Assembly: GCA_018657065.1 (NCBI GenBank)
Contig: JABHXU010000017.1
Coordinates: forward strand, 43,067 to 107,066
DNA length: 64,000 nucleotides
Reading direction: 5' to 3'
Source: an archaeon
Lineage (GTDB): Archaea > Nanobdellota > Nanobdellia > Woesearchaeales > GW2011-AR15
Shown: positions 9,159-57,191 of the stretch, piece by piece
Layout: each line of letters opens with the position of its first letter
Numbering within the stretch: the stretch's first letter is position 1
Notes under the pieces: model-generated
Seen by the model: the letters and a program-made list of their open reading frames with translations, nothing else
What the model was told of the DNA's origin: nothing
Databases searched by the model: none
Translations under genes and position numbers: made by a program

Positions 9159-9307
9159 GCCCCTGTAGTGTAATGGATAGCACGTAAGATTGCGGCAAGT
9201 GGTGCGTCGATTGATACCGCACCGTGTACTATCGAACAGGTTCGACAGTACTAACTTTCAAAATTTGCAAAAATCTTGAAATCGGAGTTCAATTCTTCGC
9301 TGGGGCG
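9159..9307 (+). tRNA. Intron-containing tRNA, tentatively tRNA-Arg(GCG), with about 77-nt intron in the anticodon loop
   Basis: Hand-folded. Acceptor GCCCCTG/CTGGGGC has one T-T mismatch. D arm GTGT/AATGGATA/GCAC. Anticodon stem TAAGA...TCTTG is split by 9196-9272. T arm CGGAG-TTCAATT-CTTCG; discriminator G. The intervening segment forms two strong hairpins (GGTGCG/CGCACC and GTACTATCGAAC/GTTCGACAGTAC). Confidence 0.6.
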
Positions 9308-21700: not shown

Positions 21701-22295
21701 CATTGATGATAGATGTGATGATTGTATTGATCTAGATAAGGATGGTATTTGTGACCATGAAGATACTTGTCCAGATGTTTATAATCCAACAAACGTAGAT
21801 ACTGATGGAGATGGTGTAGGAAATGCTTGTGACTATGATAGAGATAATGATGGGTATGATGCATCAGTAGATTGTCATGATTGGGACAAAGATATTAATC
21901 CAGGTATGAAAGAAATTAAGGGAGACGGGAAAGATAATGACTGTGATCCACTAACTTCAGACAAAGAAATCAAAATTAGAAGTCAAGATTTATTGCTTGG
22001 AACAAAAATCATGAACGAAGACACAGCAATTGATGATAGAGAATTAAGAGTAGCTGTTTATGTCAAAAACAAAGGAAGTAAAACTGCTAAAAATATTAAA
22101 CTTAAAGCAACACTTCTAGATGAATATGTTTCTGACGAAACAATTATGCCAACTCTTAAAGCAGGAAAAACTAGTAGAGTAATCTTAAATATTCCTCTTT
22201 ATGGTGGAGTAATGCCAGATGAATACTACTTAAGAACTACATTAAGTGTTGAAACAGTAAAAAAAGCAAAATATAGTCAAGTGTTATTGCACTGA
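18741..22295 (+). CDS. Giant cysteine-rich repeat protein: thrombospondin type-3-like Ca-binding repeats + about 20 Myxococcus-type cysteine-rich repeats ([11 protein letters not shown]...DGC...C) + C-terminal CARDB-like domain
   Basis: 1184 aa. [38 protein letters not shown] (TSP3-like). Reiterated YCGDxI..[15 protein letters not shown](S/D)xxC units. TSP3-like repeats again near the C-terminus, then a beta-rich tail. No N-terminal signal peptide at the annotated ATG. Confidence 0.8.
   Translation: [1184 protein letters not shown]
19665..20048. repeat. Near-perfect tandem duplication, 2 x 192 bp, inside the cysteine-rich repeat gene
   Basis: 19665-19856 and 19857-20048 differ at about 5 nt. 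Both encode [64 protein letters not shown]. Confidence 0.8.
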
Positions 22296-27001: not shown

Positions 27002-28090
27002 TTACCTGACAATTTCTATTCCTAATTCCTCAGAGACTTCTACCATCTCTCGGTTTGGTTGAGCATTGACAGATTTACCAAGTATCCATGGGCTTTTAAC
27101 ACCAGTAACAATGGTCATGACAGTTAATTTACCTTTCATTTCTTCCATTATTCTAGCTCCCCAGATAACATTGGCATCCTCATCGAGACTTTCTGTTACT
27201 AATTCTCCAATCTGATTTATTTCATCTAGAGTTAAATCTGGTCCTCCACATACATGAATTAAAGCTCCCGTTGCTCCTTCATAGTTTATATCTAATAGTG
27301 GATTACTTAAAGCACCTTTAACTGCTTCTTCAACTCTGTTGTTTGTATCTGATGCACCTACTCCAATAGCGGCTACACCACCGTTTGTCATAATTGCTTT
27401 TACATCTGCATAGTCTAAATTGACTAACGAAGGTAGAGCAATTGTTTCGACAATTCCTTTAATCATTGTTGCAATTAATTCATTTGCGACAGCAAAAGCT
27501 TGTCTAATTGGAAGATTTCCAGCAATTTGAACTAATCTATTGTTATCAATTACAATGACAGTATCACTAACTTTTCTTAATTGTTGTAGACCAAATTCTG
27601 CTTTGTCTACTCTTGCTCTTTCAATTTTAAAAGGCATAGTTACAGTTCCTATAACAATTGAACCTAGGTCTCTAGCAACTTCTGCAATAACGTGAGCAGC
27701 TCCTGTACCTGTTCCTCCACCCATTCCTGCACAAACAAATACCATGTCAGAACCTTTTAAAGATTCTTTAATATCATTCATTTGCTCTTGAGCAGATTCA
27801 GTTCCTCGTTCAGGGAAACCACCACAACCAAGTCCTCTTGTAGTTTCGCGTCCGATTAAGAATTTTCTATCAGCTTCAGTGACACTTAAATGTTGCATAT
27901 CAGTATTACATGCAATAATTTCTGCGCCTTTGACGCCTTTTTGGTAAAGCCAGTTTACCATGTTGTTACCAGCGCCACCAGCACCAATTACTTTAATTGT
28001 TGCTTGGTGGACTTCCATTCCATCAAAATTTTGATCCGAATTTTTTAATGCGTTGTCCACAACGAAATCCATTTTTTCTATACCCCCCAA
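27002..28090 (-). CDS. ftsZ: Cell division GTPase FtsZ
   Basis: GGGTGTGAAHVIAEVARDLG tubulin signature, NTDMQHL, and full-length conservation. Confidence 0.95.
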   Translation of the reverse strand: MGGIEKMDFVVDNALKNSDQNFDGMEVHQATIKVIGAGGAGNNMVNWLYQKGVKGAEIIACNTDMQHLSVTEADRKFLIGRETTRGLGCGGFPERGTESAQEQMNDIKESLKGSDMVFVCAGMGGGTGTGAAHVIAEVARDLGSIVIGTVTMPFKIERARVDKAEFGLQQLRKVSDTVIVIDNNRLVQIAGNLPIRQAFAVANELIATMIKGIVETIALPSLVNLDYADVKAIMTNGGVAAIGVGASDTNNRVEEAVKGALSNPLLDINYEGATGALIHVCGGPDLTLDEINQIGELVTESLDEDANVIWGARIMEEMKGKLTVMTIVTGVKSPWILGKSVNAQPNREMVEVSEELGIEIVR

Positions 28091-39150: not shown

Positions 39151-39374
39151 TAAAGAGTAGCAAAATTACATAATATATATAATTAATTAAATTTTTTAAT
39201 TCATTTTTGTTCTTATTGCTTTAAATTTATATATTTGTTTTACTTATGTCATACACACATCATACAAGTATCGCCCTAGAAACATTTATATATTACTTAT
39301 GTACATGTTTTATCATACAAATATCATTTAAAGTACAAAAAGTGACATAGTATACAAAAGTGGTACCGGACCGA

Positions 39375-39530
39375 ATGAAAGTTACTGTAGTTAATGTTAG
39401 ACTACCTAAAAAAATAGTAGAGTGGATAGATTCTCTTGTAGAAAAAGATATTTATAATTCTCGTAGTGAAGCGATTCGTGATTTTTCTAGATCTTATGTA
39501 ATTGACAACAGGGGTGAGTCTAATAACTGA
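39375..39530 (+). CDS. Ribbon-helix-helix (CopG/Arc-like) DNA-binding protein, 51 aa
   Basis: MKVTVVNVRLPKKIVEWIDSLVEKDIYNSRSEAIRDFSRSY is a canonical RHH beta-strand + two helices. Below the track's size cutoff, so found by eye. Confidence 0.6.
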   Translation: MKVTVVNVRLPKKIVEWIDSLVEKDIYNSRSEAIRDFSRSYVIDNRGESNN

Positions 39531-39783
39531 TAAAATTGTTAGTGTTAGAATGCCTAAAGCTTTAGTTATTGAGCTAAAAGAAGTAGCTTCAAAAAATCAT
39601 TATTTAGATGTTAGTGAAACTATTCGTTCTCTTCTTAGAAAAAGATGGTTAGAGCAAAAAAAGCCACATAAAGCTAAATTAAATCAAATTAAGCAAAATC
39701 TTTCTGGAATTTCTGATCCTAAACAACTTAGGGCATTAAAACAAACAATTAAACTTTTGGAGGAAATAAATGAGATTCAATAA
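39511..39783 (+). CDS. Second ribbon-helix-helix (CopG-like) protein
   Basis: ...IVSVRMPKALVIELKEVASKNHYLDVSETIRSLLRKRWLE. Start is ambiguous (TTG 39502 / GTG 39511 / ATG about 39549). Overlaps the start of the next gene. Confidence 0.5.
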   Translation, partial: GVSLITDKIVSVRMPKALVIELKEVASKNHYLDVSETIRSLLRKRWLEQKKPHKAKLNQIKQNLSGISDPKQLRALKQTIKLLEEINEIQ

Positions 39784-42769
39784 ACAATTATTGTCATGGG
39801 TAATTTTGGCAATTATTGTAGCATTAGCTTTCTCATTTAGTGATACAGGAGTAAACGCTTCAGATAATACAACTAATCTTACTGTAATAAATTCATCTTT
39901 AGAAATTTGGGACACAAATTTTGTTTATGTAAATGAGTCAGTGACAATATATGCTAATTATAGTTATGAAAATGGAACTATTATTGGAATAGATATTTGT
40001 CAATTTATTGGAGAATACATGTCATTTAACATGACTTCAGGATTATATTATTACATTGAAACGTATGATACTCCAGGAAATTATAGTTATGATATTTATT
40101 GTTATAAAGAAGGATACGCTGAAAAAGAGGAGTTTGGAATTATTGAAGTAATTCAAAATACAACTCAAAATGAAACAAACATAACAATCATTGATGAAGA
40201 TAATGATGGATATAGTAGTGAAACAGATTGTGATGATAATAATGCTAATATTAATCCAGGAATGAATGAAGTATTTTATAATGGAATTGATGATGATTGT
40301 AATCCATTAACAAATGATTATGTATTTTTTAATGTAACAACTAGTAGAAGTTCTTACGCTCATCAAGAAACAGTTTCAATTCATATTAATGCCCTCAATC
40401 ATTCAGATACTTATATTACAATTAATACTCCAACAAACGTTTCATATGTTTACATTTTTGCAAATGGAAGCTATCCAGCAACTCAAGAATTTTCTCTAAC
40501 AGGCATATCAGGAATTTATTCAATTGATGCAATAAATTATTATGAAGATTATACTAATACAAAATCTGTAAATTTTACAGTATCTAATTCTATGGCAGTT
40601 AATATTGTAACAAATAAAAATACTATAGAATTAGGTGAATCAATTAATTTTAGGGCAGAAATTTCCGGAAACATTGGTGAAGCAAATCTTATTTGGAATA
40701 TGGATGATGGAAATGAAGAATATGATACTGTTTTTGATTATACATATGATAATCCAGGAACTTATAATATTGTTTTAATTGTAACAGATCAAGGAGGAAA
40801 CCAAGTAATTAAAACTAAACAAATAGTAGTTAATCCAAAATATTTCTTAGAAGTAAAAGTAGTAGATAATTCAACAGGAAATATAATTTTGAATTCAACA
40901 GTTGAATTAGATAATGATGAAAAAGAAGTAAATTTATCAGGAAAAGTTGAATATGAAGTAACAAATATTACTTATAATTTAGAAGTGTTTGCAGAAGGGT
41001 ATTATAGTTATGATGAAAATATAAAAATCAATAAATCTCTTGATTTTATAGTTAAACTAGTTAAAAATCCTAGTGATATAATTCCCTCAGTCTCTTTAAT
41101 ATCTCCAGGAAATAATTCTGATGTTTCAAATCCAGATTTTAGATTTAAGTTTACAGACAATGGCAAAGCAAAATGTACTTTATATGTAACAGAAGGTGAT
41201 GGATGGTGGCTTGACGTTAATGAATCTGATAATTTGAATCCTAATACTGAATACATGTTTAAACCTGAACTAGGGAAAGGTAATTATCATTGGAAGGTAC
41301 AATGTAGGGATGAAGATGATAATGTTGGAAGTAGTAAACAATATTATCTAAAAATAAAAGAAAGTACGACAAGTACTCAAAACATAAATAGTGAATCAGA
41401 GACAACTTACAATGTAATTCAAAATGTGTATAATGTGATTCCAGATTTTGACACTTATAGTCCAGATGAGAAGAAGATTGCAGAATATCTTAAAATGGAT
41501 GTTCTAATAAAAGATGCTCAAAGAAAATTAGAAATGGCTAATAGAGATCTTTTTAATTTACGAAACGAACCCGACACCCAATCAATAATTGACAAAAGAG
41601 ATGTAATCTATAATGACATTGATAAAATTAAGGATGATACACCTTTATCTGTTAGTGTAATAGACAAGGCAGATTTTGTAAAATATCCAACAGATGAAGA
41701 ACTAGAAAAATTATTTGAAGATTATATAGCATTAAAAGGAATAGAATTAAGCAAAAGTCAAAGAACCAGTCTTCTTGAGAAAAATAAACTTTTACAAAAA
41801 AAAGTTAGTGTTAGAACTTTGGCTTATTTAGTAGAAATTCAATATATTTCTGGAAGAAGCGAAGAAATAACATTAGTTTCTAGAATTTTAAGTACTGATG
41901 AAACTGCAACAGATATTATGTTTGTAGAATTTGTACCTAAAGATTTAATTGAAAGCGTAAATGAAATTGTGTTTATAACACCTGTAGATAATATTTTACA
42001 AGAGGATCCTGTATTTGAAATTCAACTAAATAAAGGAAAAGAATTTTTATATTATGTTAAAGAAACAATTGAACTAGATAAAATTCCTAAAATAGATATT
42101 GCGGCAATTAGTACAATAATAACACAACAAGATTCAAAATTAACAGGTTTTGTAGTATTTGATAATTTAGGTTTTTCAGAGTCAAATACTAAAATATTTA
42201 TAATTCAAATGATAGTTGTGTTTATACTACTCGGAGTATATTTATTTTTTTATTTTACTTCAGGATCTCAATTTACACTACCTAGTTTTAGTTTTAATTT
42301 TTTGAAAAAATCAAGTCCTGTAAGTCCAGTTGCAAATTATGGATCCACTAAAATTAAAGAAGTAGTTTATAAACCAGCTGTTCAAGAATCAGTTGTATCA
42401 AATATTCCATTGGATGAAGCACATAAAATTGAATACATGATTCAAGTTATTGGTAAAGCTCATGCATTACTTAATGTAGATTTAGAAAAAGCAGCATTAT
42501 ATTATCACGAGGTTAAGTTCTTATATGAATTTTTACCTAAAGGTGATCAAGATCATGTACATAATAAAGTAATTAATTTAGCAGATGAACTTAATTTAAA
42601 ACATGTTCAAAAATTAGTAGATAAAGCTGTAATTGAATTAGCTCATAATAATAAGGATAATGCTCATGAAATTTATGATCATATTGTTGAAGAATTTGAA
42701 AAATTATCAGAAAGTCACAAACAAAAAGTTTACAAAAAATGCTGTGAAATAGCACTCCACTTAAAATGA
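39770..42769 (+). CDS. 999-aa surface glycoprotein: signal peptide, sequon-saturated ectodomain with PKD-like domain, TM helix, about 180-aa cytoplasmic tail
   Basis: MRFNKQLLSWVILAIIVALAFSFS signal. PKD-like block ...IWNMDDGNEEYDTVFDYTYDNPGTYNIVLIVTDQGGNQ. TM IFIIQMIVVFILLGVYLFFYF. Confidence 0.7.
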   Translation: MRFNKQLLSWVILAIIVALAFSFSDTGVNASDNTTNLTVINSSLEIWDTNFVYVNESVTIYANYSYENGTIIGIDICQFIGEYMSFNMTSGLYYYIETYDTPGNYSYDIYCYKEGYAEKEEFGIIEVIQNTTQNETNITIIDEDNDGYSSETDCDDNNANINPGMNEVFYNGIDDDCNPLTNDYVFFNVTTSRSSYAHQETVSIHINALNHSDTYITINTPTNVSYVYIFANGSYPATQEFSLTGISGIYSIDAINYYEDYTNTKSVNFTVSNSMAVNIVTNKNTIELGESINFRAEISGNIGEANLIWNMDDGNEEYDTVFDYTYDNPGTYNIVLIVTDQGGNQVIKTKQIVVNPKYFLEVKVVDNSTGNIILNSTVELDNDEKEVNLSGKVEYEVTNITYNLEVFAEGYYSYDENIKINKSLDFIVKLVKNPSDIIPSVSLISPGNNSDVSNPDFRFKFTDNGKAKCTLYVTEGDGWWLDVNESDNLNPNTEYMFKPELGKGNYHWKVQCRDEDDNVGSSKQYYLKIKESTTSTQNINSESETTYNVIQNVYNVIPDFDTYSPDEKKIAEYLKMDVLIKDAQRKLEMANRDLFNLRNEPDTQSIIDKRDVIYNDIDKIKDDTPLSVSVIDKADFVKYPTDEELEKLFEDYIALKGIELSKSQRTSLLEKNKLLQKKVSVRTLAYLVEIQYISGRSEEITLVSRILSTDETATDIMFVEFVPKDLIESVNEIVFITPVDNILQEDPVFEIQLNKGKEFLYYVKETIELDKIPKIDIAAISTIITQQDSKLTGFVVFDNLGFSESNTKIFIIQMIVVFILLGVYLFFYFTSGSQFTLPSFSFNFLKKSSPVSPVANYGSTKIKEVVYKPAVQESVVSNIPLDEAHKIEYMIQVIGKAHALLNVDLEKAALYYHEVKFLYEFLPKGDQDHVHNKVINLADELNLKHVQKLVDKAVIELAHNNKDNAHEIYDHIVEEFEKLSESHKQKVYKKCCEIALHLK

Positions 42770-45700
42770 CAAAGAAAAAAACTAAAATTGACATAGACAC
42801 AATTTTAATGAATGTTTTAGTAGTTTTACTTATCTTAATTTCAACTATTTCATTAGTAATTATAAGAGATTATGTGGGGATGGTTGCTTCACATGGTGCA
42901 AGGGGAGGAAGAATAACTGAAATAAATGTTGTTCATCAGGCACCAGCCACAATTTGGAATGGAATATTTGGAATTGCAATTCAAGCAGCATTGGATACTC
43001 CTTGGTATGTATTTGCGAATAATGGAGAAGTATCTGAACTTAACCCTATTTATCCTTGTTTTGAAATTGATAAAGTTCATGAAATTTATTCCACAATTTT
43101 AAATGAAACAGAACTTATATGGGCAAATGTTACAGTTGGAAATACAACTATGTTGGATAACTGGGTAGGAATTTTATCAAATGATACCATGTCAGCAACA
43201 CAGACATTTAATGACACAATTTCTGTAGAGTTAGGTAATGTTACTTTTAGTAATGTTCCTGCTATTTACATGAAAGAATATAATGAACCAAATAGTACAG
43301 AGTTTCCAGTAGGAATTTTACAATACAATGGAACACCAATTATGGTTACACTAATTAACACAGATTACATAACTGGATTTAGACCTGATAAATTAGTGAA
43401 CTATGAAATGATGGTTCCAGTACCATTTAATTCAACAAATTTAAAGTATTATTTATATGTAGATCCTTATGATACTTGTCCTTATGGTTCAGGTGGATCA
43501 GCAGAAGAAATAGGAAGAGGAGAAGTATATGGATATGTAACGGATACGGATACAGGTCAATTTTTAGAAAATACTTTAGTTGCAATTGATGGAAAAATAT
43601 ATGTTACAAGTTCAGATGGATATTATAATATTTCTGAGGTGGCTGAAGGTGAACGATATATAGTTGCAACAAAGCTTGGATTTGGAAACTATGTTAGAAA
43701 TTTAACAATTGTTGAAGATGTTTCTTTAGAACATAATATTTCCATGGATATTGTATTTGATCAATCGTTTACTGGGACAGGTTCAGGAGTAGGAACTGGT
43801 GTAGACGATCCAGGAACAAAAACTAAATCAGGAGATGGTCCTGGTATAGGTCCTGGTATAGGTCCTGGTATAGGTCCATTTATTGAAAAACCAGAAAATA
43901 TTGGTGTTGATAATTGGATGTCTCTAGACCGACTTAAGAAAAGAATTAGATTAAATAATTTTTTTACTGAACATTTACTTGTGTTTAGTTTTAGATCTGA
44001 ACCTGCAGAAGTGAAAATTCAAATAACAGGTGACGCTGCAGAAATAATTGAACTTTCAGACACCTCTGCAACAATTGAACAAAATGAGTATGCAAATTTT
44101 TCAGTAAGAGGGTATGGTTTAGAAGAAGGTCAGTATAATGGGGAAATTGTAGTTAGTGGGGATTTTAATGGGACAATTCCAATTGAAATTACAGTTAGTG
44201 ATGAAGAAAGATTACCTGTAGAAGCACTTTTAATTCAATTAGATGTATTAACAAGAAGACCTCTTCCAGGAAAGAACTTTAAATTTAGTGTGAACCTTCA
44301 AAATTTACTTATTGATGAGAGATATGATGTAAGATTAGATTATTATTTAAGAGGTATTGAAAGTGAAACAGCTAATAATACATTATATATAGGAAATGAG
44401 ACTGTAAGCTTAAGAACAACAGAAACAGTTATTGAAGAATTTGTAATTCCGTCTGAATGGCCTAAAGGTGATTATTTCTTAATTATAGAAGCAAATTATT
44501 TTGATATGTATTCAAGAACTACAACAGTTTTTGAACTATTTGAGCCAATTCAAAATTACAAAGTATTTGGATTAGTTGAACTTTGGAAAGTATTAACTGT
44601 TTTAGGAGTTTTAGCTTTTATTCTTGGTTTAGTTTTGTATATTAGACGTGAAATTAATAAAAGAAAAAGATTCCATGCAAAAGTAGAATATAAATTACTT
44701 CCAAAAAAAGGACCTAGGTCATTATATGTAGGAAAAATCGCTGAAACAGAAAATGATACATATTTTGATATGGATAAATTAACAGTCCATAGTATTGTTG
44801 CAGGATCAACAGGAGGAGGTAAATCTATTTCTGCTCAAGTAATAATTGAAGAATGTTTAATGAAGGATGTAGCAGTTATTGTTATTGATCCTACAGCACA
44901 ATGGTCTGGAATGTTAAGAAAATGTCAAGATCAAAAAATGATGTCTTATTATCCTAGATTTCATTTAACAAAAAAAAGTTCTAGAGCATTTAATGGAAAT
45001 GTTAGAGCTATTATGAATCCACTTGAAAAAGTAGATTTACTTAAATTTTGGAAACCTGGAGAAATTCAAGTTATTACAACAAGTACTCTTGATCCAAAAG
45101 GCATGGATATTTTTGTTGCAAATACAGTTAGACAAGTTTTCAAATCAAATCTAAAAGAGTATAGGGGTTTACGATTTATGATGGTTTATGATGAAGTTCA
45201 CAGATTGCTACCTAAATTTGGTGGTACTGGAGAAGGATTTGTTCAAATTGAAAGGGCTTGTAGGGAATTTAGAAAGTGGGGTATAGGCGTTATGCTTATT
45301 TCACAGGTTTTAGCAGACTTCGTTGGACAAATTAAAGCAAACATTAACACTGAAGTACAAATGAAAACAAGAGATGAAAGTGATTTAGCTAGAATTAAGG
45401 ATAAATATGGAGCATCATTTATTCAAGAACTTGTTAAATCTCCAGTAGGAAGTGGCATGGTTCAAAACTCATCATGGAATCGAGGTTTACCTTATTATGT
45501 TACTTTTAGACCAATTTTACATAGTGTTGTAAGATTAAGTGATGAAGAACTTGAAAAATATAACAAATATAATTTGATTGCAGAAGACCTTGAATTTCAA
45601 TTAGATCAATTGGAAGAAACAGGTAAAGATGTGTTTGATTTAAGACTTGAATTAAAATTATCAGTTGATAAAATAAAACAAGGCGGTTTTAATATGGTTG

Positions 45701-46866
45701 AAATTTATTTAGAAGGATTAAAACCACGAATTGAAAAAATATGGAAAGATTTAGGCCAAGAACCTAAACATAAAGAAGTAGAACTTGTTAGTGAAAAAGA
45801 ATTAAAAGCGTCTATTGATGAAGCAGAATCTGAAAGTAAAAAAGCTAAAGAAGCTGCAGCTTCAGCAGTAAGTGGTGATGAAGAGGAAGGTGCAAAGTCT
45901 CTAGGATTAAATGATGATGTAGCACCAGATCAAATGTTAAAATTAGTTAATGGAACACTTGTCATTAAGTTAAAAGCATTGCTTGATGAAGTTAAAGTGT
46001 TAAAAGAACCAGAATTTAAAACTCATGTGGATGAAGGAAAAAACGATTTATCAGATTGGATTAGAACAGCTATAGGAAGTGATGCTTGGGCAGATTTAGC
46101 AGATCCAATTTTAACGAAAGGGGATTATATTAAATTTTTAGAAGCACTTGATTCAGGTAAAGAAAAAACATTTAAACCAACAACGCCAAGAAAAGAGCCT
46201 TATTCTAGTAAAAAAGAAGTTCCTGTTGAAGAGAAAAAAGAGGATGTTAAGGGAGAAGGAAAAGAAGAATCTAAGGAAGATAAAAACGAGGAATCTAAAT
46301 CTGATGAAATAAAAAAAACAGAAACTAATTCTGAAGAAAAAGTTCAAGAAACAAGTAGTCAGGAAGAAAAAAAAGAAGATGAATCAAATCTAAATAAGAA
46401 TCAAGAGATTCAATCTGAAAATAAAGAGCAAGAGCTTAAACTTGCACAAAATAATGAAAATCAAAAAAGTAATGAATCTCAAGAAGAGCAAAAAGGAACA
46501 AATTTTGATTTGAATGAAGTTAGACAAAAACTAGCATCATTACAAAACTCAGAGGAGAAAATAAATTATTTATTAGAATTAATAAATAAAAATCCAAATA
46601 ATAATGATTTATTGTTTTCATTAGCATCAGAATATCATAGAGCTCAAAAATATGATGAAGCTGAAATTAATTATAAAAAAATTTTAGAAAGAGATTCTGG
46701 AAATTTCAAAGTTATGTATTATTTGGCAAGTTTATATAGCACTATGAAAAAATATGATGAAGCTCTTGAATTGTTTAATAAGGTTAAAGCAATTAAACCA
46801 GATTATCAAAAGGTACAACAATATTTAGATTCAATAAATAAAATAAAACAAAAGGCAACACAATGA
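42766..46866 (+). CDS. 1366-aa membrane protein: N-terminal TM, extracellular CarboxypepD_reg-like domain + (GPGI)n, second TM, cytoplasmic HerA/FtsK-type (DUF87) P-loop ATPase, E/K-rich linker, C-terminal TPR repeats
   Basis: ATGA overlap with the upstream gene. GYVTDTDTGQFLENTLVAIDGKIYVTSSDGYYNISEV (CarboxypepD_reg-like). Walker A HSIVAGSTGGGKSISAQVIIEECLMKDVAVIVIDPTAQW. Walker B MMVYDEVHRL. ...GVMLISQ. TPR: LLFSLASEYHRAQKYDEAEINYKKILE... / YYLASLYSTMKKYDEALELFNKV. Confidence 0.7.
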   Translation: MTKKKTKIDIDTILMNVLVVLLILISTISLVIIRDYVGMVASHGARGGRITEINVVHQAPATIWNGIFGIAIQAALDTPWYVFANNGEVSELNPIYPCFEIDKVHEIYSTILNETELIWANVTVGNTTMLDNWVGILSNDTMSATQTFNDTISVELGNVTFSNVPAIYMKEYNEPNSTEFPVGILQYNGTPIMVTLINTDYITGFRPDKLVNYEMMVPVPFNSTNLKYYLYVDPYDTCPYGSGGSAEEIGRGEVYGYVTDTDTGQFLENTLVAIDGKIYVTSSDGYYNISEVAEGERYIVATKLGFGNYVRNLTIVEDVSLEHNISMDIVFDQSFTGTGSGVGTGVDDPGTKTKSGDGPGIGPGIGPGIGPFIEKPENIGVDNWMSLDRLKKRIRLNNFFTEHLLVFSFRSEPAEVKIQITGDAAEIIELSDTSATIEQNEYANFSVRGYGLEEGQYNGEIVVSGDFNGTIPIEITVSDEERLPVEALLIQLDVLTRRPLPGKNFKFSVNLQNLLIDERYDVRLDYYLRGIESETANNTLYIGNETVSLRTTETVIEEFVIPSEWPKGDYFLIIEANYFDMYSRTTTVFELFEPIQNYKVFGLVELWKVLTVLGVLAFILGLVLYIRREINKRKRFHAKVEYKLLPKKGPRSLYVGKIAETENDTYFDMDKLTVHSIVAGSTGGGKSISAQVIIEECLMKDVAVIVIDPTAQWSGMLRKCQDQKMMSYYPRFHLTKKSSRAFNGNVRAIMNPLEKVDLLKFWKPGEIQVITTSTLDPKGMDIFVANTVRQVFKSNLKEYRGLRFMMVYDEVHRLLPKFGGTGEGFVQIERACREFRKWGIGVMLISQVLADFVGQIKANINTEVQMKTRDESDLARIKDKYGASFIQELVKSPVGSGMVQNSSWNRGLPYYVTFRPILHSVVRLSDEELEKYNKYNLIAEDLEFQLDQLEETGKDVFDLRLELKLSVDKIKQGGFNMVEIYLEGLKPRIEKIWKDLGQEPKHKEVELVSEKELKASIDEAESESKKAKEAAASAVSGDEEEGAKSLGLNDDVAPDQMLKLVNGTLVIKLKALLDEVKVLKEPEFKTHVDEGKNDLSDWIRTAIGSDAWADLADPILTKGDYIKFLEALDSGKEKTFKPTTPRKEPYSSKKEVPVEEKKEDVKGEGKEESKEDKNEESKSDEIKKTETNSEEKVQETSSQEEKKEDESNLNKNQEIQSENKEQELKLAQNNENQKSNESQEEQKGTNFDLNEVRQKLASLQNSEEKINYLLELINKNPNNNDLLFSLASEYHRAQKYDEAEINYKKILERDSGNFKVMYYLASLYSTMKKYDEALELFNKVKAIKPDYQKVQQYLDSINKIKQKATQ

Positions 46867-47702
46867 TACCTAAAATTTCACCTACACATTATTTTAAACT
46901 TAGTAATGGTCAAATTATTAAACATATTAGTGAGTTGCCAGACTCTATAGATCGAATGCCCGTTGAATTGTTTAATGAGTATGTTAATTATAATAAGAAT
47001 GATTTTGCTAAATGGGCATATGATGTTTTTAGGTTTAAAGATTTAGCAATATTATTAAAAAGTGTAAAATCCAAAGAAGAATCTTCAAGAATACTTAGAG
47101 CATATTTACAAAAAAAATCTCAAAATTATAAAATATTAAATTCTCAAGAAGTAATTCAAATAAAAAAACAAGAATCTAAAGAAATTTCACAAAACAAAAC
47201 AGAACAGGAACCAAAAAGATATACCTGGAATTCACAAAAACCAATTAAAGTTCAAGAAAAAAAAGAAATAATTGAACCAGTATCAAAAAAAGAGATAATT
47301 CAAAAAGTTGTGATTGAAGAAAAAAATGTTCAACATAATGTAACGCAAAAAAACGTTTCTGAAGCAGATAAATATTTTGATGAAAATCCTGTGTTAGTTA
47401 GTCAAATGGTTGATACAAAAAAGAAGAATATACAATTAGAAAAAGTAGAGAAAATCGAATTTACAAATTTAGATATGCCTGAAAAAGTAATTGAATTGTT
47501 TAAAGATACGTATACAAAAGCATATGAAAAGCTTGTTTTGCTTAGAAAAAATGGATTTGACACTAAAATTGTTCAATTGATGCTTTTTAGAATTCCAAGT
47601 AGAATCAAAATCTATGAAGCTGCCAAAGAAAAAAAAGAAGCAATTCAAATTAATAGATATTTAAACGAAGTAATAGATGAACTTAATGCAATATATGAAT
47701 AA
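46863..47702 (+). CDS. Hypothetical K/E/Q-rich protein, translationally coupled to the ATPase gene
   Basis: ATGA overlap at 46863-46866; no known domain. Confidence 0.45.
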   Translation: MIPKISPTHYFKLSNGQIIKHISELPDSIDRMPVELFNEYVNYNKNDFAKWAYDVFRFKDLAILLKSVKSKEESSRILRAYLQKKSQNYKILNSQEVIQIKKQESKEISQNKTEQEPKRYTWNSQKPIKVQEKKEIIEPVSKKEIIQKVVIEEKNVQHNVTQKNVSEADKYFDENPVLVSQMVDTKKKNIQLEKVEKIEFTNLDMPEKVIELFKDTYTKAYEKLVLLRKNGFDTKIVQLMLFRIPSRIKIYEAAKEKKEAIQINRYLNEVIDELNAIYE

Positions 47703-47736
47703 AATATTTATACTATAAGAGGTAAAGAAATATAAT

Positions 47737-48843
47737 ATGTTTATTTTCAAAAAAAAATATCCGCGAGTTGAGGATGCAGAAAATGAAAAGGATGATGATT
47801 CATTTAATCAGGAATCTCAAGAGGAAAAGAAACCTGATATGCCTGCAACAACTGATAGAGTTACACAAGCACTTTCTGCAGATATTATAAAACTTAAAGC
47901 ACAATTTGATCAGTTTGCAGAGCTTAGAAAACTTATTAATGAAAGATTTACACGAATTAATGAACAAACAGGTGAACTTCGTGGAATGATTATGGATTCT
48001 AATAGAACCATGCAAGATATGGAAGTTAAAACAGCTAAAGCCGTCGATTTGGTCGAAGCAGTTCATCCAGATAAATTAATGGTGGATGTTAGAAAACAAG
48101 ACGCAAAAATTGAAGCATTAAAAGCAGGTATAGAAAGTAATGACACCATTATGAAATCTTTAATGGATCAATTAAAAGAGATGAGACACCAACTGAATTC
48201 ATTTACTGGAATTGAGGAAATGGTGAGTTTAAGTAAAGAAGTAAAAAAAGAATTAATGGAAATTAGAAAAGAAGAAGCAACAGTAAAAAGACATGCAGAT
48301 AAGATTGAAGGTATATTTATTGAAACACAAAAAAAATTTCAAGAATTTGAAGCAGTTACAGATAAATTAAAAGAATTACAAAAACAAGTTTCTCCTGTTG
48401 TTGCTCAAGTAGATCAAAATAAAGTAAAAATTCAAACACTAGCCCCAAAAAAAGATGTTGAAAATTTAATTTCAAAATTAAATGATTTTGAAAAACATGT
48501 TGGAAATATTATTGATTTATTAACAAAAAGATCAAATGAATTGCCTAAGGAAATTGACAAAAGATTTGAAAGACTTGAAAAAAGTATGAATGATTCATTT
48601 GAAAAGCATTTAAAGAAAGCTGAATTTATGAATAAAATAATATTAAAAATTGAACAAGATGCTCCAAGAATTGCAAAAGAATTGAAATTATCAGAGAACT
48701 TAAAAGACGTTGATGTAAAAAAAATAGAGTCAGAGGCATCACAAGAATTACAAGAAAATGTTGAAGAATCTGAAAAAGAAAGAAAAGGATTCTTTGCAAA
48801 AATCTTTGGTGGAAAAAAAGAAGAAGAGTCAAAGGAAGAATAA
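47737..48843 (+). CDS. Long coiled-coil protein (368 aa)
   Basis: Continuous heptad-like K/E/L/Q composition; acidic N- and C-termini. Confidence 0.5.
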   Translation: MFIFKKKYPRVEDAENEKDDDSFNQESQEEKKPDMPATTDRVTQALSADIIKLKAQFDQFAELRKLINERFTRINEQTGELRGMIMDSNRTMQDMEVKTAKAVDLVEAVHPDKLMVDVRKQDAKIEALKAGIESNDTIMKSLMDQLKEMRHQLNSFTGIEEMVSLSKEVKKELMEIRKEEATVKRHADKIEGIFIETQKKFQEFEAVTDKLKELQKQVSPVVAQVDQNKVKIQTLAPKKDVENLISKLNDFEKHVGNIIDLLTKRSNELPKEIDKRFERLEKSMNDSFEKHLKKAEFMNKIILKIEQDAPRIAKELKLSENLKDVDVKKIESEASQELQENVEESEKERKGFFAKIFGGKKEEESKEE

Positions 48844-48878
48844 AAGTCAAAATTAGGTAAAAAACGAGGTGTAAAAAA

Positions 48879-49388
48879 ATGTCAGAGTTTGTTATATTTA
48901 TGCATGTTATTATTTCAATTATTTCAGTAGTTTTATTTGTAATGTTATCACTAAGATTTTTTAAAGAATCAAAGGCATTAATTACAACTAGGTTAACTAA
49001 GGTTTTATTATTTTTATTGTTCTTTTTATTTCTTGATGGTTTTTTTAATACTATGACCTATTTTGTTGGAACTTTTACGATGTTTTATTCGACAGAAATT
49101 ATTCAAATTATATCAAAAGTAGGAGTATTTGGGTCTATTGTATTTCTAGCACATTTTGCATATGATAAAAAATTTGAAGAATTAAAAGACAAAGAACATT
49201 CTGTTCTTGAGTTAAAAGAAATTAATAAACAATTAGAAATTAAAACTCTTGAAATGGAAAGATCTCAAGCTATGCAAGAAAGAAAATTAAAAGAATTAGA
49301 ACGATTCAATACTATAGCAAAAGAGAGAGAAGCTAAAATGATGAAATTATTAAAGAAAGCTGATAAGATTGAAAGAAAATTAAAATAA
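48879..49388 (+). CDS. Small membrane protein (3 TM) with C-terminal coiled coil
   Basis: TM helices, then ...LELKEINKQLEIKTLEMERSQAMQERKLKELERF... Confidence 0.45.
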   Translation: MSEFVIFMHVIISIISVVLFVMLSLRFFKESKALITTRLTKVLLFLLFFLFLDGFFNTMTYFVGTFTMFYSTEIIQIISKVGVFGSIVFLAHFAYDKKFEELKDKEHSVLELKEINKQLEIKTLEMERSQAMQERKLKELERFNTIAKEREAKMMKLLKKADKIERKLK

Positions 49389-49392
49389 TTTT

Positions 49393-49551
49393 TTAATTTT
49401 TTTCTCTGAATAATAGTCTTACTGCATATTTAATGACATCTGTTCTTGATGTAAAGTCTCCTTGAGATTCTTTTGCTAAATCATCAATTTTTCTTGCTAG
49501 ACCTTCTGGTATTTTTACTGTGATATATTTGATTCCAGTTTTTTTCCTCAT
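49393..49551 (-). CDS. Third ribbon-helix-helix (CopG-like) protein, 52 aa
   Basis: MRKKTGIKYITVKIPEGLARKIDDLAKESQGDFTSRTDVIKYAVRLLFREKN. Convergent with the end of the 39.4-49.4 kb operon. Found by eye. Confidence 0.55.
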   Translation of the reverse strand: MRKKTGIKYITVKIPEGLARKIDDLAKESQGDFTSRTDVIKYAVRLLFREKN

Positions 49552-53945: not shown

Positions 53946-55093
53946 AATATTACGATGTGATTATACTTGGATCTGGAATAGCAGGTTCAAGCCTAGCATA
54001 TCATCTTAAAAAAAATGATTATAAAGGGGAAATATTGGTTTTAAGTAGTAAAATAAGAGCTAATTTAGGTTATAACCATAGATTAGTTTTTAAAAAAGAT
54101 ATTGATGAATACAATTTACCAGTTGCAAAAAAATACAAAAAAGTAAGTGTAGGAGCTTATGACAAATCATATTTTACTTTGAATCACGATGTTTATTTTA
54201 TTAATTATAGTGAAACTTGTGATTTTTTATTAACTAAAAGTGGTGTTGAACAAAAAAATGAAATTGCATTAGATATGACAAATAATATTTTAAAAACTAA
54301 TAAAACAAATTACAAATTCAAATATTTGATTGATTGTACAGGGTCAGCTTTTTTTTTAAGAAAAAAATTAAATTTTACACTTCCTCATATTTACTGGCTT
54401 GTTAAAACTTCGATTTATAAAAATTCAAATGAATTTGATAAGGACACATTTTATTTTTCTTTTTCCAATGAAGAATATTTTGAAGATGTATATCCAATAG
54501 GAGATAAAATTGCATATGGCGAATGGGTGTATACTAAAAGTACAAATTACAATAACATAATTCCTAATAAAAAGAATTTTTTTAAAAATAAGGCAAATAA
54601 ACTCCAACCTTTAGAAGTGAAATATGCAACTTTTCCTGTAGCATTATCTCTTCCCTTAATACATAAAAATTTTGCATTCTTAGGAGATAGTTTTGGAAAT
54701 GGACTTCCGTCAGTAGGTAGAGGAATAACCGTAATTTTAGATTCTGCAAAAATTCTTTCAAAAGCAATTAAAAAACGAGATTTAAATTATTATGATAAAA
54801 TGTGGAAACAAAAATATTTAGAAAAATATATTAAAATTATTTCATTAAAAGAAAATACTCATTTTAATAATATGTTTATTAAAAAAATAAAGAATTATCC
54901 CGGAATTAAAAAAATACTATCTGAAGTTAAAAAAAAACCAGAACATTTTATTAACATGATTACTGATAAAGGTGATCCTAATTTCACAAAAGATTTACAA
55001 AAAATATTTCCAAAAAGAGTGGTTCTTTGGCAAGCATATCACTATTTTAAAACAAAAGTAAGGTATTTTTTCATGGACAAAAAGAGAGTGTAG
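53942..55093 (+). CDS. FAD-dependent oxidoreductase, geranylgeranyl-reductase/lycopene-cyclase-like
   Basis: N-terminal dinucleotide fold YDVIILGSGIAGSSLAYHL and FLGDSFGNGLPSVGRGI (GDAAG..P..G.GI-like). Confidence 0.55.
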   Translation: MKYYDVIILGSGIAGSSLAYHLKKNDYKGEILVLSSKIRANLGYNHRLVFKKDIDEYNLPVAKKYKKVSVGAYDKSYFTLNHDVYFINYSETCDFLLTKSGVEQKNEIALDMTNNILKTNKTNYKFKYLIDCTGSAFFLRKKLNFTLPHIYWLVKTSIYKNSNEFDKDTFYFSFSNEEYFEDVYPIGDKIAYGEWVYTKSTNYNNIIPNKKNFFKNKANKLQPLEVKYATFPVALSLPLIHKNFAFLGDSFGNGLPSVGRGITVILDSAKILSKAIKKRDLNYYDKMWKQKYLEKYIKIISLKENTHFNNMFIKKIKNYPGIKKILSEVKKKPEHFINMITDKGDPNFTKDLQKIFPKRVVLWQAYHYFKTKVRYFFMDKKRV

Positions 55094-56153
55094 CGGAATT
55101 AGTATTATATCTTTTAATGTTTTCAAATTTTATTTTTTTTGCATAAATACAATCTAGAAATCCTAATATATGAGAAATAAAATAATTTTCACTTTGTTTT
55201 GAAAAAGGAATTTCATCAACATTAATAATTAATTTTTTTCCTTTGGTTATATCTACGTGGCCCCATCCAAAGGCACTATATATGTGTTGTAATTTTTGGA
55301 GACTTTGATTGTTATTTTGATTATTAAATAATGTTTTTCCAATTTTATTTGTTGAATTTCTAATAGCTAAATTCAATTCATTTTCTAAATTATTATCTTG
55401 ATATTTTTTTATTATTAAATCTAGGAATCTTGGGGAAGTTGGAAGAATTAAAAAATTTTCAAAAAAGTTTTTTCCATCTTCATTAATTTTAATTTTTTTA
55501 AACTTAACAAAATCTTGAAATGAAAATCCTTTTGTTGGAGTTTTTTGTTTAAGTTCATATGTTTCTACGTTGTTTAATATTTTTTGTGGAATATATTTTT
55601 CTTTAATTTTAGGGGAGAGAAATATCTTACAATTATCGGGACAATTTTTACATAACGCATTTGCTTCAATATTTTCTTCCATAAAAAAACTAAATATTCC
55701 GCTCATTAGACCGGCAGTCATTGATGCATCAGCGGTTTTTCTACAATAGGCATTACTTTTGCCTGAAAGCATAAGAGTTTTGTTTTTCATATCAAATTTA
55801 AAAGTATTTAAGCCAGACCCACCTGACACTTGGAGATTTTTAATTATATATTCTAAAATGTTAGGAATAAGTGATTTAGGGATTTTTTTATTTTTTGAAA
55901 AAGAGAAATACATTGTTCCAACATCTTTGCCAATTTCATACCACAATTTACTTGTTTTTTTTTTGCCAATTTTTTTAGTTGTAGTTTTATAAATTTCAAT
56001 TATTATATTTTCAAAATCAAAGATAATTCTTTTTAGACTACTATGTTTACTATATTTTCTTGTTGTTTTACTTAAAATAATACCTGGAGTTTCTATTAGT
56101 GCAACTTTAGGAAAAAATAATTTATTAAGAAAATAGTCTTTTATTTTTTTCAT
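55071..56153 (-). CDS. Hypothetical Cys-containing protein (weak resemblance to V4R-type ligand-binding modules; uncertain)
   Basis: 360 aa. Cys cluster ...AYCRKTADASMTAGLMSGIFSFFMEE...CKNCPDNC. Immediately upstream of the KaiC-like ATPase on the same strand (3-nt gap). Confidence 0.35.
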   Translation of the reverse strand: MKKIKDYFLNKLFFPKVALIETPGIILSKTTRKYSKHSSLKRIIFDFENIIIEIYKTTTKKIGKKKTSKLWYEIGKDVGTMYFSFSKNKKIPKSLIPNILEYIIKNLQVSGGSGLNTFKFDMKNKTLMLSGKSNAYCRKTADASMTAGLMSGIFSFFMEENIEANALCKNCPDNCKIFLSPKIKEKYIPQKILNNVETYELKQKTPTKGFSFQDFVKFKKIKINEDGKNFFENFLILPTSPRFLDLIIKKYQDNNLENELNLAIRNSTNKIGKTLFNNQNNNQSLQKLQHIYSAFGWGHVDITKGKKLIINVDEIPFSKQSENYFISHILGFLDCIYAKKIKFENIKRYNTNSATLSFCP

Positions 56154-56155
56154 AA

Positions 56156-56851
56156 TTAATCATCATCTTCAATTAAAATTCCTTTTTTAGAAATTTTTAA
56201 CATTAATGATGAATCAAATTGTTTTGTCCAACGCATTTTTGGAACAAAAGCTCTTCTTTCAATATTTCCGAGTGAAATGTAATCTAAATGAATTAAACCA
56301 TCAACCATATAACTAACATAATGATTCAATTGTGAATTATGGGAACTACCATTTTCTAAAAGTAGAAGTGTGGTCATGTCTTTTTTTCTAAATGAATAAA
56401 AGGATTGAGACAATATTTTTCTAATTTCATAATTTACTTTTTCAGATTTATCAAAATTCAAATAAGAAAAAAAGCAATTGAAGCTATCAACAACAAGTCT
56501 TTTAATTTTTTTATCTTTTGAAATTTTTTCTAGTAGAGTTGGATAAACTTTTTCAAATTCACTGAAATTTAAACAAATTATTTTGATTAATCCTTTTTCT
56601 TCGAAATCAAAAAATTCTTTTCCAAATGACATAGAATCAAGAGTTCTATCAATATTTGTTCTAGGTTCTTCTAAATTAATATAAACACTTTTTTCATTAT
56701 TTTTTGCTCCTTGTAATAAAAATTGCATAGCAAAAATTGATTTACCTACACCTGCTGGACCTTTTAATCCAATAATACTTTGTGTTGGTAATCCTCCCTG
56801 GACCATGTTGTCAAAACCATTGATTCCAGAAGGTATTCGCTTAATTTTCAT
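56156..56851 (-). CDS. KaiC/RadA-like RecA-superfamily ATPase
   Basis: GFDNMVQGGLPTQSIIGLKGPAGVGKSIFAMQFLLQG (Walker A) ...LVVDSF (Walker B-like). Confidence 0.65.
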   Translation of the reverse strand: MKIKRIPSGINGFDNMVQGGLPTQSIIGLKGPAGVGKSIFAMQFLLQGAKNNEKSVYINLEEPRTNIDRTLDSMSFGKEFFDFEEKGLIKIICLNFSEFEKVYPTLLEKISKDKKIKRLVVDSFNCFFSYLNFDKSEKVNYEIRKILSQSFYSFRKKDMTTLLLLENGSSHNSQLNHYVSYMVDGLIHLDYISLGNIERRAFVPKMRWTKQFDSSLMLKISKKGILIEDDD

Positions 56852-56888
56852 GGTATTTTTAAAATTAATTATATTAATAAATCTTTAC

Positions 56889-57191
56889 TTATATTTTAAT
56901 TTTATCAACATAAAAAATATAGACAGATTTTGCACTAGTATCGATTTTTTGACATGTGACTTCTTTACTTTTTTTAATATCTTCGCGAAATTCTCTAGGT
57001 ATTAAAAAATATTTTGTTGCATCATTTTTTCCTCTAAGTGAGATTCGTGATTTTGTTTCAGCTGCTTTTTCACTAATAACATGAATACCATCTAAATTTC
57101 CTTTAAGTTGGAGCGCTTCATCTCTATCAATAACTACTTCGTATGTAATTTTACCATCTTCCTGAACTTTTGAACTTAATATTGATCCCAT
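56889..57191 (-). CDS. Hypothetical protein (100 aa)
   Basis: ORF with reasonable codon usage; no domain. Confidence 0.35.
   Translation of the reverse strand: MGSILSSKVQEDGKITYEVVIDRDEALQLKGNLDGIHVISEKAAETKSRISLRGKNDATKYFLIPREFREDIKKSKEVTCQKIDTSAKSVYIFYVDKIKI

Follow-up and report, generated by a model that had tools for sequence, protein, structure and literature searches.

We analysed a 64,000-nucleotide stretch of a Woesearchaeal contig (hereafter the window) and in it an operon built around a protein of 1366 amino acids (aa), in which a region predicted to be extracellular is joined by a transmembrane (TM) helix to an ATPase. Two genes for ribbon-helix-helix (RHH) proteins head the operon, a third converges on its 3' end, and the ATPase gene is accompanied by genes for a large membrane glycoprotein and three smaller proteins. 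Sequence comparisons make it very probable that the locus belongs to the SPEARE family of archaeal surface proteins. Its features, numbered from the first letter of the window, are as follows.

39226..39360, + strand: putative promoter/operator region 5' of RHH1, with direct repeats
39375..39530, + strand: RHH1; the frame opens at GTG 39360 and ATG 39375 is the likely start; Pfam RHH_1
39502..39783, + strand: RHH2, from a TTG start; a longer RHH-like protein with weak RHH-type NCBIfam matches
39770..42769, + strand: 999-aa predicted type I membrane glycoprotein (Pfam, hydrophobicity, sequons)
42766..46866, + strand: 1366-aa protein, very probably of the SPEARE family (homology to SVXNc_0300 and SVXNc_0299)
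42808..42864, + strand: N-terminal hydrophobic segment of the 1366-aa protein, aa 15-33 (modelled helix aa 10-37)
42865..44586, + strand: predicted ectodomain of the 1366-aa protein, aa 34-607 (predicted structure, Pfam)
44587..44643, + strand: predicted TM helix of the 1366-aa protein, aa 608-626, followed by Lys/Arg-rich RREINKRKRFHAK on the cytoplasmic side
44653..45795, + strand: HerA/VirB4-clade P-loop ATPase (aa 630-925) and three-helix bundle (aa 926-1010) of the 1366-aa protein
45898..46170, + strand: DUF5752-like domain of the 1366-aa protein, aa ~1045-1135 (BLASTP against the 279-aa protein)
46528..46863, + strand: TPR repeats of the 1366-aa protein, aa 1255-1366, with an acidic Lys/Glu-rich linker on the 5' side; a lineage-variable accessory
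46863..47702, + strand: 279-aa protein with a DUF5752-like N-terminus and a C-terminal helical domain
47737..48843, + strand: 368-aa coiled-coil protein, with 173 homologues
48879..49388, + strand: 169-aa protein: three predicted TM helices, cytoplasmic coiled coil
49393..49551, - strand: RHH3, 52 aa; convergent, 4 nt from the end of the operon

The original prediction listed eight open reading frames (ORFs) here and ATGA stop/start overlaps at 42766 (junction of the 999-aa and 1366-aa genes) and 46863 (junction of the 1366-aa and 279-aa genes); ORF calls bear out all of them. Seven of the genes are tightly packed on one strand, and RHH3 converges on them. The overlap is 29 nt between RHH1 and RHH2 and 14 nt between RHH2 and the 999-aa gene; the remaining intergenic gaps measure 34-35 nt.

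The topology of the 1366-aa protein can be read from two hydrophobic segments (aa 15-33 and 608-626), which have Lys/Arg-rich sequence N-terminal of the first and C-terminal of the second. Sixteen of the 20 N-glycosylation sequons fall between these segments (Fisher p=6e-4). Because the sequons are enriched there, and given the Lys/Arg-rich flanks, the middle of the protein is predicted to lie outside the cell and the ATPase in the cytoplasm, in agreement with the arrangement first proposed (TM helix, ectodomain, TM helix, cytoplasmic ATPase). One element of that proposal needs qualification: the N-terminal hydrophobic segment is present, but it may be a cleaved signal peptide rather than a TM helix, as nanohaloarchaeal relatives carry a typical Sec signal.

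Pfam recognizes three regions in the protein: a CarboxypepD_reg-like domain (aa 254-327), DUF87/HerA (aa 654-725) and TPR (aa 1260-1350). Structures were predicted for aa 1-640 and for aa 630-1010, in both cases as monomer models. The first (AlphaFold, pLDDT 72) places a beta-rich N-domain (aa 60-235) before a transthyretin-like CarboxypepD_reg domain (aa 250-330), followed by a disordered linker of GPG repeats (aa 331-380) and two membrane-proximal beta-sandwiches of the PapD/ASH type (aa 383-592).

The second model is confident (pLDDT 89.8) and covers the motor. Both by sequence, in searches of the PDB, and by fold, the ATPase core retrieves relatives of HerA, VirB4 and FtsK, as would be expected of the HerA/FtsK-type ATPase originally proposed; in the fold ranking HerA and DptH score above VirB4, FtsK is more distant and the closest relative is HerA. 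The P-loop motifs noted at the outset are present. Walker A (GSTGGGKS), Walker B (DEVHR), the arginine motif REFRKWG and the sensor SQ are invariant, the Walker motifs and the sensor residue having been assessed in 22 homologues. The TM helix is separated from the motor by ~25 residues, and only a short beta-hairpin precedes Walker A.

Constraint on the motor is exceptional. Twenty of 22 family members have a motor of 381-382 aa (it is shorter in the two that diverge most), and its median identity is 65%, compared to ~31% for the ectodomain. Between two related genomes the motor is 82-83% identical, whereas the neighbouring UbiA-like and geranylgeranyl-reductase-like (GGR-like) proteins are 34-36% identical. 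The catalytic site is intact and under very strong purifying selection. The window itself contains no second paralogue of the ATPase; only this long form is found.

Beyond the three-helix bundle the protein continues with a DUF5752-like domain, an acidic Lys/Glu-rich linker and the TPR repeats. The DUF5752-like domain (aa ~1050-1130) is shared with the N-terminus of the 279-aa protein (BLASTP E 8e-7); the homologue P0018 scores DUF5752 at 3.6e-9, and the domain was detected in 64 loci. The TPR tail was found in only 16.

The original prediction held that this combination of parts matches no system known to its author. That view had to be abandoned, and the idea of an undescribed system was ruled out, once a protein search seeded with an Aenigmatarchaeota member of the family reached named proteins of Nanohaloarchaeota: the published SPEARE giant surface proteins have this cytoplasmic module as their hallmark. 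The window ATPase aligns with the C-terminus of the 9,409-aa protein SVXNc_0300 of Ca. Nanohalococcus occultus (40% identity over 356 aa, E 8e-95), and the 1366-aa protein aligns with SVXNc_0299, encoded downstream of SVXNc_0300, over the last beta-sandwich, the TM helix and all that follows (34% identity over 494 aa, E 1e-88). The motifs DPTAQW(S/T)G and REFRKWGIG are common to the window ATPase and its nanohaloarchaeal relatives. On the strength of these alignments we regard the locus, with high confidence, as a compact Woesearchaeal member of the SPEARE family.

Hamm et al. described SPEARE proteins in 2019 (PMC6642349), an example being NAR1_1133 of Ca. Nanohaloarchaeum antarcticus. That study found the intracellular part to be the most conserved, interpreted it as a restriction domain of type III, pointed out that Woesearchaeota, Aenigmarchaeota, Micrarchaeota and Altiarchaeales have similar sequences, and reported proteomic detection of the Antarctic protein, apparently in two pieces. 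In 2023 Reva et al. (PMC10266531) revised the annotation of the domain to a VirB4/TraG-like ATPase that has a coiled coil at its terminus, noted a second ATPase gene, and proposed a 'straw', similar to a type IV secretion system (T4SS), that injects effectors. Small 'SPEARE-like' proteins have also been reported (PMC9563170). Both the family and its Woesearchaeal homologues are thus in the literature, and the functions originally envisaged for the operon, namely attachment, DNA uptake and cargo transfer, had already been raised as hypotheses (PMC6642349, PMC10266531). What appears to be new is the compact Woesearchaeal operon, its candidate RHH operator, and the presence of a 368-aa-family partner after the ATPase gene in three DPANN phyla; no description of the coiled-coil partner, the other conserved partners or the RHH-operator region was found in the searchable literature.

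The window protein shares with SPEARE proteins the cytoplasmic ATPase and helical bundle, the membrane-proximal beta-sandwich, the TM helix and the outside-in topology, and in both cases a coiled-coil gene of the 368-aa family lies downstream. The differences are also clear. The window protein has 1,366 aa compared to 4,000-9,400 aa, Pfam finds no laminin-G, protease or toxin-like domain in it, it carries an additional DUF5752-like domain and TPR tail, and two RHH genes and a distinct gene for a PKD membrane glycoprotein stand before its own. In Ca. Nanohalococcus occultus and nanohaloarchaeon SG9 the giant genes encode 9,409 and ~8,570 aa, respectively, and a 623-625-aa member of the family lies directly 3' of the giant gene, with a 4-nt overlap. 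The N-terminal half of SVXNc_0299 (P0361, L093 8001-9872) consists of a signal peptide and a ~230-aa extracellular region, in which two tandem segments can be discerned by eye.

This short ATPase paralogue, which has no copy in the window, does have a counterpart in related Woesearchaeal loci (L029-L032, L036, L056, L061, L071, L080, L085). It is ~780 aa long, shares the layout of SVXNc_0299 (signal/TM, ~230-aa ectodomain, TM, ATPase), ends in a DUF5752-like tail, and is found behind a longer PKD-type protein or else paired in tandem with the long form. The long/short tandem mirrors the nanohaloarchaeal giant-plus-short pair and hints at mixed rings.

One genome per species was scanned, ORFs were called in the 79 retained species-level Woesearchaeota/Nanoarchaeota loci, and these were searched with the window proteins. 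At least 579 matching stretches occur in species-representative genomes. Homologues of the whole 1366-aa protein all come from metagenome-assembled genomes (MAGs) of DPANN archaea, and the organism is itself of the Woesearchaeota type, which accords with the DPANN-type cell originally supposed. In a library clustered at 50% identity, 367 clusters matched at E<=1e-30, and in every case the ATPase was preceded by an N-terminal region, of ~250 to >5,600 aa. Members of the ATPase family reach 6,253 aa, and one bears an N-terminal subtilase.

In most of the 79 loci the genes follow the order RHH-RHH-PKD glycoprotein-ATPase-(DUF5752-like protein)-coiled-coil protein. RHH1 and RHH2 are each present upstream in 44 of the 48 loci with enough flank, and in 43 of the 48 they stand together with the PKD glycoprotein in the same orientation. 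The gene order envisaged at the outset is therefore conserved in dozens of species as far as RHH-RHH-glycoprotein-ATPase-coiled coil is concerned; the TPR tail, the 169-aa gene (4 of 57 loci) and RHH3 (L002, L011, L014 and L017) were found only in close relatives.

Many third-party MAG records with such a Woesearchaeota-type locus are titled 'uncultured Methanosarcinales archaeon' (L010, L013, L015, L017, L041 and others), and one is titled 'Candidatus Saccharibacteria bacterium'; probably the taxonomy given is in error, or the contigs were placed in the wrong bin.

The gene for the 999-aa glycoprotein immediately precedes the ATPase gene (43/48 loci). Its product begins with a signal/TM segment (aa 6-24) and continues with a sequon-rich ectodomain, a TM helix (aa 809-827) and a 170-aa helical cytoplasmic tail; Pfam and NCBIfam recognize a MopE-like Cys motif, PKD and Big_13 domains in the ectodomain. 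All 24 of its N-glycosylation sequons precede the TM helix (p=3e-3).

The 368-aa protein was found downstream of the ATPase gene in 39 of 57 loci. It has a conserved ERFTRINEQxGELRGMI motif and a C-terminal amphipathic stretch, GFFAKIFGG; there was no match in Pfam, and sequence and profile searches of the PDB returned nothing below E 0.09. Proteins of the same family, with the ERFTRINEQxGELRGMI motif in common, are encoded directly after the ATPase gene in two nanohaloarchaea (hhalign 98.3% and 97.2%) and in an aenigmatarchaeon (99.2%), the coiled-coil genes in these loci lying at L093 9917-11455, L094 11913-14138 and L003 16519-17733. In Ca. Nanohalococcus occultus the coiled-coil protein is SVXNc_0298. 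Because a member of the coiled-coil family follows the ATPase gene in all three phyla examined, the pair of ATPase and coiled-coil protein can be viewed as a cross-phylum core.

The 279-aa protein, which a search with a single query located downstream in 31 of 57 loci, had been labelled K/E-rich. The label suits its variable linker, which is rich in Lys, Glu and Gln, but overlooks two conserved domains, the first DUF5752-like and the second a C-terminal helical domain with the motif LRKxGxD...PKIK. Homology of this second domain to the helical bundle of the ATPase was considered and rejected (hhalign probability 1.7%). In the nanohaloarchaeal loci the coiled-coil gene is followed by a 108-aa gene; the copy in Ca. 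Nanohalococcus occultus encodes a zinc ribbon and a C-terminal TM helix, and the gene was accordingly rejected as an equivalent of the DUF5752-like protein.

The region upstream of RHH1 (39226-39360) contains two direct repeats of ~53 nt, each with a TATA-like box, TTTATATAT, and an element ATCATACAA(G/A)TATC. The heptamer TCATACA occurs three times in this region, and the TATA-like boxes are flanked by (A/T)TCATACA(A/T). Among related loci TCATACA is present in 25 of 54 regions upstream of RHH1, compared to 1.2 expected (~20-fold), and 11 loci have at least two copies; a block, AAACATTTATATA, is likewise conserved there as judged by eye. A regulon search found no other TCATACA cluster within the 64-kb window. 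Since the heptamer is enriched at the same position in related loci and clustered nowhere else in the window, the array fits an RHH operator, and this is probably its role. The conserved array upstream of RHH1 lends plausibility to the original notion of an RHH-regulated operon.

The RHH signal is weaker in RHH2 and RHH3 than in RHH1. RHH1 matches Pfam RHH_1 at 4e-6, and its NCBIfam NikR and CdrS matches are far below the cutoffs; RHH2 resembles RHH1 at E 3e-4. RHH3 matches RHH_1 at 0.0075 (16.6 bits, compared to a cutoff of 20.5).

How might such an operon work? Among known motors, HerA has the same type of RecA-like ATPase core; in contrast to HerA of the HerA-NurA system the window ATPase is membrane-anchored and has no N-terminal HAS barrel. 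Pfam detected no NurA in the operon or its flanks, and the score from the NCBIfam HerA model is 25.7 bits, compared to a cutoff of 800. A second point of reference is the Ced system (PMC11868833), in which CedB and CedD, archaeal HerA-clade ATPases with N-terminal TM anchors, power DNA import. The window ATPase is likewise a HerA-clade enzyme with N-terminal TM anchoring, and the CedD model matches weakly over the Walker A region (28.8 bits, compared to a cutoff of 600). It differs in having no VirB4-like N-domain, while Ced proteins have no large ectodomain, and neither a CedA (VirB6-like) channel nor CedA1/A2 pilins were found in the operon. FtsK/SpoIIIE and the type VII secretion ATPases EssC/EccC are more distant in fold, and the window ATPase has no (KOPS-reading) gamma domain, tandem ATPases or FHA domains.

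Our interpretation is that a SPEARE-family surface glycoprotein is here joined through one membrane helix to a motor of the HerA/VirB4 clade, and we lean, by a modest degree, towards an ATP-driven envelope translocase. By analogy with its structural relatives the ATPase would form a hexameric ring, and because only ~25 residues separate the TM helix from the motor this ring would lie directly under the membrane. Hydrolysis of ATP would then drive a polymer through a channel formed by the TM helices of the ring together with partner membrane proteins. That the machine is a ring translocase acting across the membrane seems rather probable on these analogies. The identity of the substrate is a more tentative matter: DNA is a reasonable candidate without being the likely one, protein is marginally less plausible, and transduction of force with no substrate at all is unlikely. 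The 1366-aa and 999-aa proteins would extend their glycosylated beta-sandwich stalks across the envelope towards a partner cell or the environment, while the 368-aa protein, with its amphipathic C-terminus, the DUF5752-like modules and the TPR tail may provide a cytoplasmic scaffold or adaptor. By binding to the TCATACA repeats around the TATA box, RHH1 and RHH2 would regulate their own operon.

Several points weigh against a translocase of this kind. The motor was modelled as a monomer only; fold searches with the ectodomain gave generic beta-sandwich matches only; and Pfam and NCBIfam detected no nuclease, relaxase, pilin or polytopic channel of the VirB6/CedA type in the operon. The proteomic data on the Antarctic protein (PMC6642349) raise the possibility that outer and inner parts are cleaved apart, which complicates a simple continuous conduit. 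Finally, the extreme conservation of the motor and its near-ubiquity are also compatible with a housekeeping function that has nothing to do with host contact.

The published model for the nanohaloarchaeal homologues (PMC10266531) offers an alternative: a VirB4/TraG homologue would push protein effectors through the surface protein into the host, in the manner of a T4SS. Weak NCBIfam matches to TraD and TraC are in its favor, as are the cytoplasmic bridges reported for Ca. Nanohalococcus (PMC11001535). The scores of all T4SS models are, however, far below the family cutoffs. The VirB4 N-terminal domain (PF03135) was undetected at E<=0.1 in both the window protein and SVXNc_0299, so that its published assignment to the latter was not reproduced with current Pfam, and Pfam and NCBIfam gave no significant match among the operon proteins to VirB2/3/6/8/11 or VirD4-like partners (best E 0.02-0.035). 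Compared to VirB4/TrbE and the coupling proteins VirD4/TrwB, moreover, the window ATPase has no all-alpha domain, and its extracytoplasmic 'loop' is a glycosylated multi-domain stalk of 570 aa. Because HerA and DptH outscore VirB4 by fold, PF03135 is undetected and no other T4SS component is in evidence, the T4SS label attached to the SPEARE motor is weakened, and we think effector injection of this kind unlikely.

A second alternative takes the operon to be a housekeeping machine, either an FtsK-like DNA pump acting at division or a motor for assembly or anchoring of the surface layer, with the RHH proteins as cell-cycle regulators and host interaction not its primary business. The motor is indeed far more conserved than neighbouring housekeeping enzymes and is present in hundreds of species, and the operon keeps a stable chromosomal position beside UbiA/GGR/KaiC-like genes in relatives. 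The 999-aa protein, with its beta-sandwiches, helical region and C-terminal anchor, resembles an S-layer stalk; the RHH proteins weakly match the cell-division regulators CdrS and aCcr1; and a HerA-domain protein localizes to midcell in Haloferax (bioRxiv 10.64898/2026.07.16.738847). These matches are nevertheless sub-threshold (NCBIfam CdrS 27.8 bits, compared to a cutoff of 100; aCcr1, from RHH3, 18.1 compared to 60), and ftsZ lies 11 kb away with no RHH neighbour and no operon link. The fold, too, is nearer to HerA than to FtsK, and Pfam FtsK_SpoIIIE scores the window ATPase at 19.6 bits, below its cutoff of 24. Family members with ectodomains of 3,000-6,000 aa, one of them with a subtilase, resemble interaction proteins and not division proteins. 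We judge a housekeeping function somewhat less probable again than effector injection.

A defence or restriction module, whether a type III restriction enzyme or an anti-phage system of the HerA type, is highly improbable. Homologues do match Pfam ResIII (6.8e-7 in SVXNc_0299), and PADLOC HerA models match the ATPase (8e-14), but both matches are limited to the shared P-loop core; it is to this restricted ResIII match that the earlier 'restriction' reading can be traced. Effector domains such as a nuclease or SIR2 are absent, PADLOC gives no significant match for any of the seven partner proteins (the 368-aa protein has a weak one, E 0.0027), and a glycosylated membrane protein in a conserved core operon is unlike the patchy composition of defence islands.

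That unrelated genes are adjacent by chance, with no functional operon, can be practically dismissed: conservation of the 169-aa gene, RHH3 and the TPR tail is narrow, but the frames overlap, RHH1, RHH2 and the PKD glycoprotein recur upstream and the coiled-coil gene downstream at the frequencies given above, and the ATPase/coiled-coil pair recurs in three phyla.

Returning to the envelope translocase, a bolder version can be put forward, although we hold it to be doubtful. The ATPase and the 368-aa-family protein may be the core of a DPANN-specific envelope translocon whose composition bears no relation to that of type IV secretion, Ced, FtsK or type VII systems, and which moves DNA or proteins between symbiont and host by way of the cytoplasmic bridges seen by cryo-electron tomography. 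To this core the Woesearchaeota would add the PKD glycoprotein and the DUF5752-like protein, the compact RHH-regulated operon being its minimal form.

SPEARE proteins, known only from sequence and one proteomic detection, are the main candidates for host attachment and material exchange in the genome-reduced, symbiotic DPANN archaea. The present data indicate that their hallmark motor is not confined to the giants of Nanohaloarchaeota; among Woesearchaeota and Nanoarchaeota its distribution is very wide and its conservation extreme, and the ectodomain is usually much smaller there. A coiled-coil partner conserved across three DPANN phyla, together with the other partner proteins and the candidate operator region, makes the family more testable, and a version of 1.4 kaa is far more tractable for expression, structural and interaction studies than one of 9 kaa.

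The surroundings of the operon are those of a chromosomal locus. The window has a G+C content of ~27%, and the operon is flanked by housekeeping genes, not by a mobile element: an XPD-type (DEAD_2 family) helicase, a 3-methyladenine glycosylase, a phosphoribosyltransferase, an amidohydrolase, and UbiA-like, GGR-like and KaiC-like genes. Phage records gave no match, and IMG/VR gave three matches of only 23-25% identity. A plasmid origin was also considered and rejected: the matches were haloarchaeal DUF87 proteins with 24-29% identity and another architecture.

Some further observations concern the neighbourhood. The KaiC-like ATPase and its companions of 360 and 100 aa are encoded at 55071-57191 (- strand), ~6-7 kb beyond the 3' end of the operon; many related loci likewise have KaiC-like genes nearby (among them L001, L002, L061, L073, L076 and L093), and one lies near the nanohaloarchaeal locus. 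One giant member of the ATPase family ends in a DUF835 domain. Upstream, ftsZ occupies 27002-28090 (- strand), and an intron-containing tRNA at 9159-9307 (+ strand) was detected by Rfam and missed by ARAGORN. At 18741-22295 (+ strand) the window encodes a Cys-rich surface protein of 1184 aa, which contains DUF4215 repeats and a CARDB domain and has its MopE-like Cys motif in common with the 999-aa glycoprotein.

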